From: Candidatus Omnitrophota bacterium | GTDB lineage: Bacteria > Omnitrophota > Gorgyraeia > Gygaellales > Gygaellaceae | Direction: 5' to 3' | Assembly: GCA_018400015.1 (NCBI GenBank) | Contig: JAGYNB010000001.1 | Span: forward strand, 198,815 to 262,814 | DNA length: 64,000 nt | In this document: piece by piece, positions 58,211 to 60,013 of the stretch | Layout: the number at the start of each line of letters is the position of its first letter | How positions within the stretch are numbered: the first letter of the stretch is position 1 | Notes under the pieces: generated by a model | Databases searched by the model: none | The model's input: the letters and a program-made list of their open reading frames with translations, nothing else | Told to the model about the DNA's origin: nothing | Made by a program: the position numbers and the translations under genes

Positions 58211-58531
58211 ATGTTGAATTTAGATAAATATCCGATTCCTAATGAATCAGTGGTAAGCGCTGATTTGGACGATCAGTCTGTTGTATTGCTTAAAATAGAC
58301 GGCACAGAATTTTATTCACTAAATTCTACAGCTGCTAGAATCTGGCAACTGGTAACCGGATTTAACAGTATAAACGATATAATTAAAATCTTCTCGAAGG
58401 AATACAACGCCTCTTTTTCTAAAATAAAGGAAAGTGTTTTGCGGCAGATCAATGAATTTATTAATGAAGATTTGATTTGTTTGGCGGAAAAGAAATCAAA
58501 ATTACCCAAGAAAAAAACTAGGAAAAAATAA
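58211..58531 (+). CDS. PqqD-like RiPP recognition element (lasso B1-type)
   Basis: 106-aa ORF with a winged-helix PqqD pattern (LLKIDGTEFYSLNSTAARIWQLV...SINDII). Confidence 0.65.
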   Translation: MLNLDKYPIPNESVVSADLDDQSVVLLKIDGTEFYSLNSTAARIWQLVTGFNSINDIIKIFSKEYNASFSKIKESVLRQINEFINEDLICLAEKKSKLPKKKTRKK

Positions 58532-59541
58532 TGCTAAGGATTGGCTTAGAGACGACAAATAGATGTAATTTGAATTGTTTACATTGTGTTCGTGAAAAAG
58601 GATTGCCGGTAGCAGATTTATCGGTAGATATTTTAAATAATCTTATTAAAGAAATTAAAGATTTTGGGTTGACTTTAGTAAGCTTAACTGGGGGTGAACC
58701 GACTATGCATCCTCAGTTTGACAGCATTATAGATATTTTAGCTAAAGAAGATTTGTCTTATACGTTGGTTTCTAACGGTTGGAATTTTCAGAAGATATAT
58801 CCTGTGTTTTTGAAAAACAAAAAGACTGTCCCCAGAGTTATAAATTTTAGTTTAGATGGGGCGCAAGAAAAAACTCATGATAAGATGCGCGGTAAGGGTA
58901 GCTACAGAAAAGTGATGCAGGCTATTGCTATTTGCCGGGCAAAGAGGATTCCATTCAGCACACAGATGGTTGTGTGCGAGTTTAATGAAAATGAAATGGA
59001 GCAGATGTGTTTATTGGCAAGCAAAATCGGATGTTCTTCTTTAGGTTTTGCGTACCCATTTCTTACGCCGAATTTGGTTAAGGATGATTTGATAAAAGGT
59101 CCTGACCACCGTAAACACTTTTTAAAAGAAGTGATGAGGCTTTCTTCGGCTTTTCGTTTGCCTATTTTTACATCCGCACAGCTCGGGACTGTTACAGATA
59201 AGAATAATTATTTATTTGAATGTTTTCATCTTATGGGAAATAGTATTAATATTGATTGTCGAGGGAATCTGACTTTTTGTTGTAATCTTTCTACTTATGC
59301 CGGCAGCTCAGGGGATAAATCAGATATTATCGGATCATTAGAAAAAGAAAGCTTTAGTAGTCTCTATAAGAAATACTTGAAGGTTCTTTTTAATTTTAAA
59401 CAGGATAGAGTAAACAGTATAAAAAATAATAAAATGTCTGAGATGGATAATTTTGGTTGTATGTATTGTGCCAGATATTTTCACAAATTAGATTGGCTTA
59501 AGAAATTTCCTAAAAGTCCTTGCGCAAATCTCTTAGAATAA
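58531..59541 (+). CDS. radical SAM enzyme with C-terminal SPASM/twitch Cys-rich domain (RiPP maturase)
   Basis: A CNLNCLHC (CxxxCxxC) motif lies at the N-terminus. A GGEP SAM motif is present. A C-terminal Cys cluster (CFHLMG...CRGNLTFCCNLS...CMYCARY) follows. Confidence 0.75.
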   Translation: MLRIGLETTNRCNLNCLHCVREKGLPVADLSVDILNNLIKEIKDFGLTLVSLTGGEPTMHPQFDSIIDILAKEDLSYTLVSNGWNFQKIYPVFLKNKKTVPRVINFSLDGAQEKTHDKMRGKGSYRKVMQAIAICRAKRIPFSTQMVVCEFNENEMEQMCLLASKIGCSSLGFAYPFLTPNLVKDDLIKGPDHRKHFLKEVMRLSSAFRLPIFTSAQLGTVTDKNNYLFECFHLMGNSINIDCRGNLTFCCNLSTYAGSSGDKSDIIGSLEKESFSSLYKKYLKVLFNFKQDRVNSIKNNKMSEMDNFGCMYCARYFHKLDWLKKFPKSPCANLLE

Positions 59542-59545
59542 ATTA

Positions 59546-60013
59546 ATGAATTTTACAGATCTTAAGATAAAAATTAAAGATTTGTTGAAAGATCTGAATT
59601 TATTTTTAAGAATCTTTTTTTTTACTATTCGCCTACCTTTTTCAATTCGATTCAAGCCTTTGGCTGAAGTTCTTGATCAAGCGGCAAGCCATAAAAAAAT
59701 AAATATTTCTGACGATGAAAAGGAATTGCAGGAAAATAAGATAAATTGCTACACTAATTTCTTATTAGGTTTTCATATCCCGATTTTTAGAAACTCCTGT
59801 TTAAAAAAATCAGTTATCTTATTTAAATTTTTAAGGGAAATAGGCATTGATGTTAAGATAAATTTAGGCGTTGTAAAAAATAGTTCGATTACCAATCTTA
59901 AGAAAGGCCATGCCTGGCTTTCTATTAATGGAAAACTTTATGCTCCCAAAGATGATTTTATTGATAATTATATTTTTGTGTATAGTTTTCCAAATGGCAG
60001 TAGTAGAAGTTGA
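59546..60013 (+). CDS. lasso-peptide B2-type transglutaminase-like leader peptidase (PF13471-like)
   Basis: A Cys (RNSCLKKSV) ... GIDVKINLGV ... His (GHAWLSING) pattern matches the McjB C-terminal protease domain. Confidence 0.65.
   Translation: MNFTDLKIKIKDLLKDLNLFLRIFFFTIRLPFSIRFKPLAEVLDQAASHKKINISDDEKELQENKINCYTNFLLGFHIPIFRNSCLKKSVILFKFLREIGIDVKINLGVVKNSSITNLKKGHAWLSINGKLYAPKDDFIDNYIFVYSFPNGSSRS

Follow-up and report, generated by a model that had tools for sequence, protein, structure and literature searches.

Lasso-type leader-peptidase genes and a radical SAM gene in a probable cyclase-less peptide operon of a Candidatus Omnitrophota bacterium

Genes at the locus

We analysed a 64,000-nucleotide stretch of DNA from a Candidatus Omnitrophota bacterium (contig JAGYNB010000001.1 of assembly GCA_018400015.1, positions 198,815 to 262,814; hereafter the window), focusing on three consecutive genes that encode a PqqD-type recognition element (RRE) for peptides that are ribosomally synthesised and modified post-translationally (RiPPs), a radical S-adenosylmethionine (rSAM) enzyme and a B2 protease of the lasso type. 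A preliminary description had read the first and the last of these as the split leader peptidase (B1 and B2) of a lasso peptide cluster, with the rSAM gene inserted between them. The genes on which the argument turns are the following, in window coordinates:

56983-57168, + strand: precursor peptide of 61 amino acids (aa), with phmmer homologues at the same position in the related loci L001 and L002
57251-58189, + strand: HPr-kinase-like (HPrK-like) P-loop protein (GKTGCGKST; TIGR04352 HprK_rel_A, E=4.9e-7, far below cutoff)
58211-58531, + strand: PqqD-type RRE, 106 aa (PF05402, E=1.3e-12)
58531-59541, + strand: rSAM enzyme, 336 aa (PF04055 Radical_SAM, E=2e-25)
59546-60013, + strand: lasso-type B2 cysteine protease, 155 aa (PF13471; NCBIfam NF033537 lasso_biosyn_B2, 40.5 bits against a cutoff of 33)

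The listing of open reading frames (ORFs) and the raw sequence agree on the order of PqqD, 336-aa rSAM enzyme and B2 that had been described. The overlap reported at 58531 is likewise present, the PqqD stop codon TAA (58529-58531) sharing its last A with the rSAM start codon ATG (58531-58533) in the sequence TAATG, an overlap of 1 nt. The gap before B2, earlier given as 5 nt, measures 4 nt (ATTA), with the rSAM stop codon ending at 59541 and the B2 ATG starting at 59546. According to the ORF listing, all junctions from 54880 to the end of the window fall between a 23-nt overlap and an 82-nt gap; since this tight packing is a trait of the whole operon, co-expression of the three genes, which had been proposed as obligate, is plausible but not specific to PqqD, rSAM and B2. 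Simple promoter and terminator scans gave no signal exceeding shuffled background, and the RNA fold of the gap 3' of the precursor gene was not above shuffled background either, providing no evidence of an attenuator.

The PqqD-rSAM-B2 order recurs in three independent metagenomic loci (L001, L002 and L087), at 49-56% identity of the rSAM enzyme, and is no chance juxtaposition. All genes of the region lie on the + strand, and they probably form one operon of a cyclase-less RiPP type, running from about 54880 to beyond 64000 with PqqD, rSAM and B2 at its centre.

Gene orders and partners of the recognition element

We surveyed the family by iterated searches over 22 loci carrying members of the same rSAM family. 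An HPrK-like gene stands next to the rSAM gene in 16 of these loci, and PqqD lies within the locus in 14, including five in which rSAM and PqqD occur with no detectable B2 (L003, L004, L009, L014 and L015). An NTP_transf_5 nucleotidyltransferase gene adjoins rSAM in nine of the 22, as it also does in the anammox loci L131 and L132, and B2 is found in six, with a seventh copy in L011 that is fused to the kinase. The arrangements observed were:

kinase-PqqD-rSAM-B2: the window, L001, L002 and L087
precursor-kinase-rSAM-PqqD-B2-NTP_transf_5: Ca. Brocadia pituitae (L007), Ca. Loosdrechtia (L131) and Scalindua (L132, with extra genes interspersed)
NTP_transf_5-rSAM-B2-PqqD-kinase: L010
B2-PqqD on the opposite strand, beside rSAM-kinase: L016
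PqqD-kinase-rSAM-B2: L088
precursor-kinase-rSAM-PqqD, without B2: L003, L004 and L009

The conserved set therefore comprises rSAM, HPrK-like protein and PqqD, with B2 optional and the order variable. Given these varied orders, the rSAM gene was not inserted into a B1/B2 pair, as first supposed; the PqqD-rSAM-B2 order is a clade-specific rearrangement of a gene set that also occurs in several other orders. Orthologues of the rSAM enzyme scoring above 150 bits are found together with precursor, HPrK-like and PqqD genes in Planctomycetota, Nitrospirota, Chloroflexota, Acidobacteriota, Myxococcota and other phyla. Among individual loci, L088 (5818-8776) holds a compact set of PqqD, HPrK-like, rSAM and B2 genes among housekeeping genes, with no recognisable precursor ORF near the four; its precursor may be encoded elsewhere or be too divergent for recognition. 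At the Caldilineaceae locus L004, a sulfotransferase gene (11295-12197) follows rSAM-PqqD, an echo of the sulfotransferases reported in some lasso clusters (PMC4289311).

The window RRE is a discrete protein of the PqqD family (PF05402) that resembles lasso B1. Among NCBIfam models it matches lasso_PqqD_Bac best (41 bits, cutoff 80); NF033536 and NF033530, both specific to lasso systems, score 41 and 20 bits (cutoffs 80 and 70), and the nearest solved structures are the lasso B1 proteins TbiB1 (5v1u, E=1e-4) and TfuB1. B2 is transglutaminase-like and has the Cys (C85) and His (H122) of lasso B2 proteins; residues R82, C85, G121, H122 and W124 are invariant in the six cluster-associated B2 proteins, making it a putative leader peptidase. 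PqqD adjoins B2 in L007, L131, L132 and L016.

In the rSAM enzyme, the CX3CX2C motif (C12/C16/C19) lies at the very start of the protein, with no N-terminal extension before it; an RRE domain is thus absent from the enzyme itself. SkfB and SuiB each carry such a domain at the N-terminus, and in the PDB matches to these proteins the rSAM core begins at about residue 112 (SkfB) and 135 (SuiB). A profile search of 1.84 billion representative sequences delimited the rSAM family at 883 clusters (50% identity, E<=1e-30). Within it we found at least six natural rSAM-PqqD fusions with PqqD at the C-terminus (P0053, P0249, P0263, P0270, P0337 and P0360): ten proteins of more than typical length were checked from the top 150 representatives, of which five proved to be fused, and P0053 was an additional case. 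The family also includes tandem double radical SAM proteins of 640-680 aa with two PF04055 stretches (P0271, P0313, P0355 and P0291).

A different account of these data would have the RRE serve B2 only, with the rSAM enzyme binding its substrate unaided and the gene order being an accident of operon packing. Adjacency alone is indeed uninformative in an operon that is tightly packed throughout, and in the commoner arrangement (L007, L131 and L132) PqqD directly adjoins B2; however, the six fusions, the five loci with PqqD beside rSAM and B2 undetected, and the lack of an N-terminal RRE such as maturases of the SkfB, SuiB and AlbA types possess all speak against this account, which we regard as unlikely. 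Together with the PqqD-B2 adjacency and the likeness of the RRE to lasso B1, the same three lines of evidence, of which the domain fusions are the strongest for an RRE-rSAM partnership, suggest that the RRE very probably serves the rSAM enzyme as well as B2, in agreement with the earlier proposal of a shared RRE. The three genes almost certainly work together. The RRE probably works with the kinase too. At L011, a 498-aa ORF (4617-6113) encodes a B2 domain at residues 2-142 and, fused to it, an HPrK-like domain at residues 275-484, and lies directly upstream of rSAM, PqqD and NTP_transf_5. There is precedent for several partners: lasso RREs present the precursor to B2, and some assist phosphorylation or hydroxylation (PMC13381572), and about 300 matches of the lasso-RRE model of RRE-Finder co-occur with rSAM enzymes and not with cyclases (PMC7470986).

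Precursor peptides and the lasso question

The 61-aa precursor, MSKNRAKAKIIKEKKVFVEPCMEKQNYISDFGATSTGSILVVTSVVSGVVGGVLFGAWVSS, is homologous to the equally placed small ORFs of L001 (phmmer 2e-7) and L002 (6.5e-6). Its leader would span approximately residues 1-37, and its predicted core, S38-S61, reads SILVVTSVVSGVVGGVLFGAWVSS; the predicted cores of L001 and L002 are AVVGGVVGAVVGAPVGLGAAAVGAAVGVVVGGVVW and VVVVAAAVGAVVAN, respectively. The leader contains a single copy of the motif F17-V-E-P20-C-M22 (FVEPCM), which appears as FIEPRM in L001 and FMEPRM in L002, and F17 and P20 are invariant in all nine precursors compared. Lasso leaders have the motif [Y/W]xxPx[L/V/I/F/A] and a penultimate Thr; in the window, F17-V-E-P-C-M22 is accompanied by T36 in register. 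This Thr stands 19 residues past the Phe in all three clade members, from which we predict leader cleavage after T36-G37.

A precursor profile search retrieved 685 proteins at E<=0.01, and the counts given below for related precursors use the best 120 of these. Among the matches listed, the precursors are 49-79 aa long and none is named beyond 'hypothetical protein'. A lasso-type leader, [FYW]xxPxL[ST]xxGx5T, is present in 119 of the 120; in 118 the aromatic-xxPx-hydrophobic motif is duplicated, with a spacing of 7 residues in 117, and these two leader motifs could mean two RRE docking sites, one for each enzyme. Such related leaders match the NCBIfam lasso-leader models, at sub-threshold scores only. 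This main family (L003:8612-9010, L007:8765-8956, L131:9001-9180 and L132:9001-9174; proteins P0110-P0229) is prominent in the anammox genera Brocadia, Scalindua, Jettenia and Loosdrechtia. Its leader is near-invariant (...KKPFxEPKLT-FIEPKLTKHGDATKIT) and its cores are mostly 8-10 residues long, for example QQGFFGTFTP, following the pattern GFFGxF(S/T)P, with FFGxF in the core of 101 of the 120. In the cassette of the complete Ca. Brocadia pituitae genome (AP021856, around 2.41 Mb) the core is QSNGFFSAFVP. In the window clade the cores are long, with many Gly, Ala and Val residues. The C-terminus of the window precursor, LFGAWVS, resembles the main-family FFGTFTP, and the pattern hydrophobic-hydrophobic-Gly/Ser-x-hydrophobic occurs three times in the window core, five times in that of L001 and once in that of L002, such that the rSAM target motif may have been multiplied in this clade.

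The precursor does have one Cys in its leader (Cys21) and one Trp in its core (Trp58), as had been noted. Cys21, however, occupies the variable position of the FxEPxM motif, where L001 and L002 have Arg and the main family has Lys, and conservation is also lacking at Trp58. A thioether of the sactipeptide or ranthipeptide type, which the preliminary description had suggested looking for, therefore finds little footing: the sole Cys lies in the leader and is unconserved, and only two of the 120 related precursors have a Cys within their last 20 residues. A cross-link of the sacti-, ranthi- or streptide-like kind that would involve Cys21 or Trp58 was rejected on the same ground, neither residue being conserved.

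We also considered whether the 61-aa ORF is a small membrane protein with a glycine-zipper helix, in which case the cluster would decorate a cell-envelope component together with neighbouring glycosyltransferases. The C-terminal 24 residues have the length of a helix and abound in Gly, Ala and Val, weak matches to glycine-zipper lipoprotein models were obtained with the L001 homologue, and genes for a GT4 glycosyltransferase, a PMT_2-type glycosyltransferase and a membrane protein with a transglutaminase core are co-conserved with the cluster; the clusters of paeninodin and of linear polyphosphorylated peptides (LPPs) likewise lie in polysaccharide loci, with final products unknown. The N-terminal part of the ORF is nevertheless homologous to the leaders of at least 685 precursors, whose cores of 8-10 residues are too short for a membrane helix, and the cluster has its own RRE, protease and ABC exporter; together these points leave this explanation improbable.

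The idea of an ordinary lasso cluster with rSAM tailoring, its cyclase lying outside the window or elsewhere in the genome, draws on the fact that B2 passes the NCBIfam lasso B2 cutoff, that lasso B1 models are the nearest to the PqqD protein and that paeninodin-type lasso clusters typically contain HPrK-like and NTP_transf_5 genes (PMC13381572; PMC4289311); moreover, the window covers only 64 kb of a larger contig. We found no asparagine-synthetase-like cyclase (PF00733) among the scanned window ORFs of at least 300 aa, none within 9-10 kb in the annotated gene-set loci L001-L004 and L131-L133, and no PP-loop motif SGGxDS in the six frames of the window or of the first 22 related loci, most of which were taken with flanks of up to 10 kb; in all, more than 25 related loci were covered. 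A PP-loop cyclase hidden in an unannotated ORF was considered and rejected, the six-frame motif search being negative. The core provides a second argument. Lasso cores begin with Gly, Ala, Ser or Cys and have Asp or Glu at positions 7-9; the window precursor has no Asp or Glu after D30, the L001 and L002 cores have none either, and only one of 119 related cores is lasso-compatible. Lacking an acidic residue for the isopeptide bond, the predicted window core cannot form a lasso, a point independent of any search. The premise of a lasso cluster thus fails on two defining features, cyclase and core, and we consider an ordinary lasso cluster very improbable.

The radical SAM enzyme, proposed pathway and related systems

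In an alignment of 31 homologues, the invariant Cys residues of the rSAM enzyme are C12/C16/C19, C135, C231, C250, C251, C310 and C313. The C-terminal cluster had been described as SPASM-type; it comprises five conserved Cys, where a complete SPASM domain would have seven, and lacks CX5CX3C. Accordingly, the SPASM model PF13186 matches at E=0.047, below its gathering score and over profile positions 1-43 of 67 only, and matches at E<=1 were obtained for 22 of the 31 family members. The conserved pattern is C231-x13-G-x4-C250(C251) ... C310-x2-C313, and an AlphaFold2 model (pLDDT 90, pTM 0.88) places a hairpin at 238-248 and then a helix at 275-298. The sequence hence has the Cys, GX4C, beta-hairpin and later CX2C of a Twitch domain, a pattern that we take to be that of BtrN and SkfB; cluster binding itself is predicted. 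By this pattern, the auxiliary domain is Twitch-like (half-SPASM).

The folds nearest to the model are those of SuiB (TM 0.66) and SkfB (TM 0.63), followed by BlsE, PqqE and anSME, and the best PDB match by sequence profile is SkfB (2.3e-26). For the window enzyme and its relatives, the NirJ2, ScmE/F, AhbD, MftC, GeoRSP, PqqE and AlbA equivalog models all score 4- to 10-fold under their cutoffs, and we therefore treat the family as unnamed. That the enzyme is a housekeeping or cofactor-maturation protein (NirJ, AhbD or MoaA-like) located here by chance can be set aside as exceedingly improbable: its top NCBIfam matches are NirJ2, ScmF/E, AhbD and a tungsten-cofactor maturase (about 75-85 bits), but these are 4- to 6-fold below cutoff and reflect mainly the generic rSAM core, and orthologues accompany precursor, HPrK-like and PqqD genes across several phyla. 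From its sequence, the enzyme is best described as a peptide maturase. Because the target motif tolerates Phe-to-Val replacement and cores without Cys, a reaction at backbone or aliphatic C-H bonds, epimerisation being our first guess, seems to us more likely than an aromatic cross-link, although this is speculation and rather doubtful.

The reading that we prefer, at a probability of about 0.7, is that the locus is a cyclase-less RiPP operon that re-uses the lasso/paeninodin toolkit of precursor, RRE, B2, HPrK-like protein and NTP_transf_5 protein, with a Twitch rSAM enzyme in the place of the macrolactam cyclase. The further genes of the operon and its surroundings are:

52024-52995, + strand: membrane protein with a weak transglutaminase core (PF01841, E=1.4e-4)
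52986-54161, + strand: GT4 glycosyltransferase (PF00534, PF13439)
54880-55992, + strand: NTP_transf_5 nucleotidyltransferase, an accessory of the paeninodin/LPP type (PF14907, E=7.4e-40)
56061-56990, + strand: 309-aa protein with an N-terminal hydrophobic segment (weak DUF6263, PF19777, E=1e-4, below curated cutoff)
60032-61855, + strand: B12-binding rSAM enzyme (B12-rSAM; TIGR03975, 157.7 bits against a cutoff of 281.85; PF04055; weak PF02310)
61833-62627, + strand: ABC transporter ATPase, DrrA-like (PF00005, E=5.9e-26; TIGR01188, 174 bits)
62608-63465, + strand: ABC-2 type permease (PF01061, PF12698)
63471-64000, + strand: PMT_2-type membrane glycosyltransferase, 5' part, its gene continuing beyond the window (phmmer to PF13231 genes)

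The model nearest to the B12-rSAM enzyme, TIGR03975, is named 'RiPP maturation radical SAM C-methyltransferase', and the enzyme, with orthologues in L001, L002 and L090, is a putative peptide C-methyltransferase. The ABC ATPase, a putative exporter or immunity component, is conserved in L001 and L002, and the permease in L001, L002 and L090. The gene of the 309-aa protein overlaps the precursor gene by 8 nt, and its orthologues, kept only in the window clade, lie directly upstream of the precursor in L001 and L002; the protein could be an immunity or accessory factor. The HPrK-like protein, a putative peptide Ser/Thr kinase, is linked by phmmer to proteins of L003 and L007 that both match TIGR04352, that of L003 also carrying PF07475/PF27840. 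The membrane protein with a transglutaminase core (orthologues beside the cluster at 2.8e-72 in L001 and 1.2e-82 in L002, in another position relative to the core genes), the GT4 enzyme (1e-165 in L001, 6e-138 in L002) and the PMT_2 protein (phmmer 1.1e-53 in L002, 1.9e-49 in L001) are co-conserved with the cluster in both loci, in differing relative positions. Between the GT4 and NTP_transf_5 genes, the window has a gene for an RluB-like pseudouridine synthase (54158-54847; S4 and PseudoU_synth_2), which is missing from this place in L001; the L002 sequence is truncated upstream of NTP_transf_5.

Under the preferred reading of a cyclase-less operon, the leader motif F17-x-E-P20-x-M22 would be bound by the PqqD-type RRE, as the precedents of lasso B1 and the LPPs suggest, and the RRE-precursor complex would then be presented to the RRE-less rSAM enzyme, a step for which the fusions argue strongly. 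The rSAM enzyme would abstract a hydrogen atom at one or more of the hydrophobic-hydrophobic-Gly/Ser-x-hydrophobic core sites, our best guess at the outcome being epimerisation or a carbon-centred modification without Cys. The B12-rSAM enzyme may C-methylate the core, with the RRE probably presenting the precursor to it and to the kinase, and kinase and nucleotidyltransferase may decorate Ser/Thr, judging from their family names and from the work on LPPs and paeninodin. The same RRE would activate the Cys-His protease B2, which would remove the leader, probably after T36-G37, and the ABC-2 transporter would export a linear, very hydrophobic peptide rich in Gly, Ala and Val.

Several observations weigh against this reading. 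The leader of the window clade has diverged, with Met for Leu and without the Gly of YxxPxLxxxG, and the window precursor matches no NCBIfam lasso-leader model; a transmembrane helix is a second possible reading of its hydrophobic C-terminus. Ser and Thr are absent from the predicted L001 and L002 cores, which leaves the kinase of this clade without an obvious target, and the HPrK-like call in the window depends on weak, P-loop-centred matches and transitive homology, the protein having no PDB match. The cyclase search covered 64 kb of a 418-kb contig, and it is solely the core sequence that excludes a cyclase in other parts of the genome. Finally, binding of the leader by the RRE, cleavage by B2, modification by the rSAM enzyme and export are inferred steps.

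The closest described system is that of the LPPs (Popov et al. 2026, Nat Commun), which are related to paeninodin clusters, lack a cyclase, and have biosynthetic gene clusters that lie in polysaccharide loci and encode an RRE, a kinase of the HprK-like type, an NTP transferase and a YxxP leader, with the RRE presenting the precursor to the leader peptidase; LPPs have a signal-peptidase-like leader peptidase and no rSAM enzyme, and are confined to Bacillota (PMC13381572). The operon described here shares the discrete RRE, HPrK-like protein and NTP transferase without a cyclase, a likeness to LppB, LppK and LppN at the level of domain families only. It differs in that the peptidase is a B2 protein, no signal-peptidase domain (SipW-type, SpI-like) being present in the cluster ORFs, in its DrrA/ABC-2-type pump where LPPs have an MsbA-like exporter, in its two rSAM enzymes and in its diderm host with lipopolysaccharide (LPS) genes. 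With split lasso B1 and B2 proteins (TbiB1/B2, FusB1/B2 and PadeB1/B2), it has in common a discrete PqqD-fold RRE, a transglutaminase-like Cys-His protease, a leader with aromatic-x-x-Pro-x-hydrophobic and a conserved Thr near the predicted cleavage site, and with paeninodin-type clusters the HPrK-like kinase and NTP_transf_5 accessory genes; unlike the split lasso systems, it has no cyclase and no acidic core residue, its RRE scores below the lasso B1 cutoffs and an rSAM gene lies between the two.

PqqD/PqqE likewise pair a stand-alone PqqD-fold protein with an RRE-less rSAM enzyme that has a C-terminal auxiliary Fe-S domain, and natural PqqD fusions occur in both systems. PqqE, however, contains a complete SPASM domain and modifies a Glu-Tyr pair, no PqqB or PqqC is present here, and the equivalog scores are low (TIGR03859 PqqD, 22 bits against 46 for the window; TIGR02109 PqqE, 53-62 against 381 for relatives). 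SkfB, which has a Twitch-type single auxiliary cluster, and SuiB are the nearest solved relatives of the rSAM enzyme, by sequence (SkfB) and fold, and both modify peptides; SkfB forms a thioether at Cys and SuiB links Lys to Trp, none of these residues being conserved in the cores here. The SynChlorMet (ScmC HPrK-like, ScmD PqqD-like, ScmE/F rSAM-SPASM) and GeoRSP (HprK-related kinase B, PqqD, rSAM/SPASM) cassettes contain the same kinase-PqqD-rSAM trio, and relatives of the window kinase match Pfam PF27840 'ScmC'. The window proteins remain far below the equivalog cutoffs (ScmF 79.5/400, ScmE 78/400, ScmD 22/100, GeoRSP_rSAM 67/400 and HprK_rel_B 19/200 bits), and the L003 and L007 relatives do not reach the SynChlorMet or GeoRSP cutoffs either. 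We found no paper with the name SynChlorMet, and both cassettes are apparently uncharacterised. By analogy, the system can be described as a split lasso B1/B2 peptidase joined to a discrete RRE and rSAM pair in the style of PqqD/PqqE.

In the polytheonamide pathway, the proteusin precursor PoyA is acted on by the rSAM epimerase PoyD, the B12-rSAM C-methyltransferases PoyB/C and the cysteine protease PoyH. The window clade similarly combines a Gly/Ala/Val-rich core, a B12-rSAM enzyme, a second rSAM enzyme and a cysteine protease for the leader, but the polytheonamide leader is of the NHLP type where that found here is lasso-like, and the second rSAM enzyme is not PoyD-like by the tests run. We regard this resemblance as a lead and not as a result.

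Extending the preferred reading to the family as a whole yields a more tentative picture, which we hold at somewhat less than even odds. The lasso cyclase would have been replaced by a Twitch rSAM enzyme that shares a lasso-type RRE with B2, in an unnamed RiPP class distributed over anammox Planctomycetota, Nitrospirota, Chloroflexota, Thermodesulfobacteriota, Acidobacteriota and Myxococcota, of which the window is a divergent member. The main branch would act on cores of 8-10 residues, and in the window branch the motif would have been expanded to a Gly/Ala/Val core of 14-35 residues and a B12-rSAM enzyme added; the window product could be polytheonamide-like, C-methylated, possibly with D-amino acids, and membrane-acting. 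No paper describing this gene set was found, which is weak evidence given the poor coverage of subscription journals; the pathway is apparently undescribed and widespread.

If this picture is correct, the lasso module for leader recognition and removal (B1 and B2) is portable and not tied to lasso topology, having been coupled at least twice to other chemistry, namely to a signal peptidase and kinase in the LPPs and to radical SAM chemistry here. For genome mining, cyclase-less B1/B2 matches would then be worth keeping and not to be thrown out in the way that the 'false positives' of RRE-Finder were. The operon would also offer a natural example of one RRE handing the same precursor on to several enzymes. 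RRE-Finder and the LPP work already foreshadow the general theme; the peptide family involved is large, prominent in anammox bacteria, unnamed and chemically undefined, with rSAM chemistry on Cys-free cores that is unexplored. The window clade would be a rare, further elaborated branch with its B12-rSAM enzyme and unusually hydrophobic Gly/Ala/Val-rich cores, and a candidate source of new membrane-active peptides.

The remainder of the window is ordinary chromosome, with genes for LeuA, TopA, KdtA, a lipid A acyltransferase, a heptosyltransferase, RtcB, DnaX and a MacAB-TolC-like pump; its LPS core genes mark the host as a diderm. GC skew is positive in each 2-kb bin (0.11-0.25), from which the whole window appears to be leading-strand and co-directional, and nearly all listed long ORFs are on the + strand. 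The GC content of about 0.37-0.40 falls to about 0.32 from 50 kb on, the region of the cluster. Two long ORFs, at 2500-4329 (609 aa) and 28568-30007 (479 aa), have no Pfam match at E<=1e-5, and the LPS-core genes at 15938-19962 include two unusual fusions, a lipid A acyltransferase fused to an ELM1-like domain (644 aa) and a GT4/GT1 domain joined to a GT9 heptosyltransferase (697 aa).

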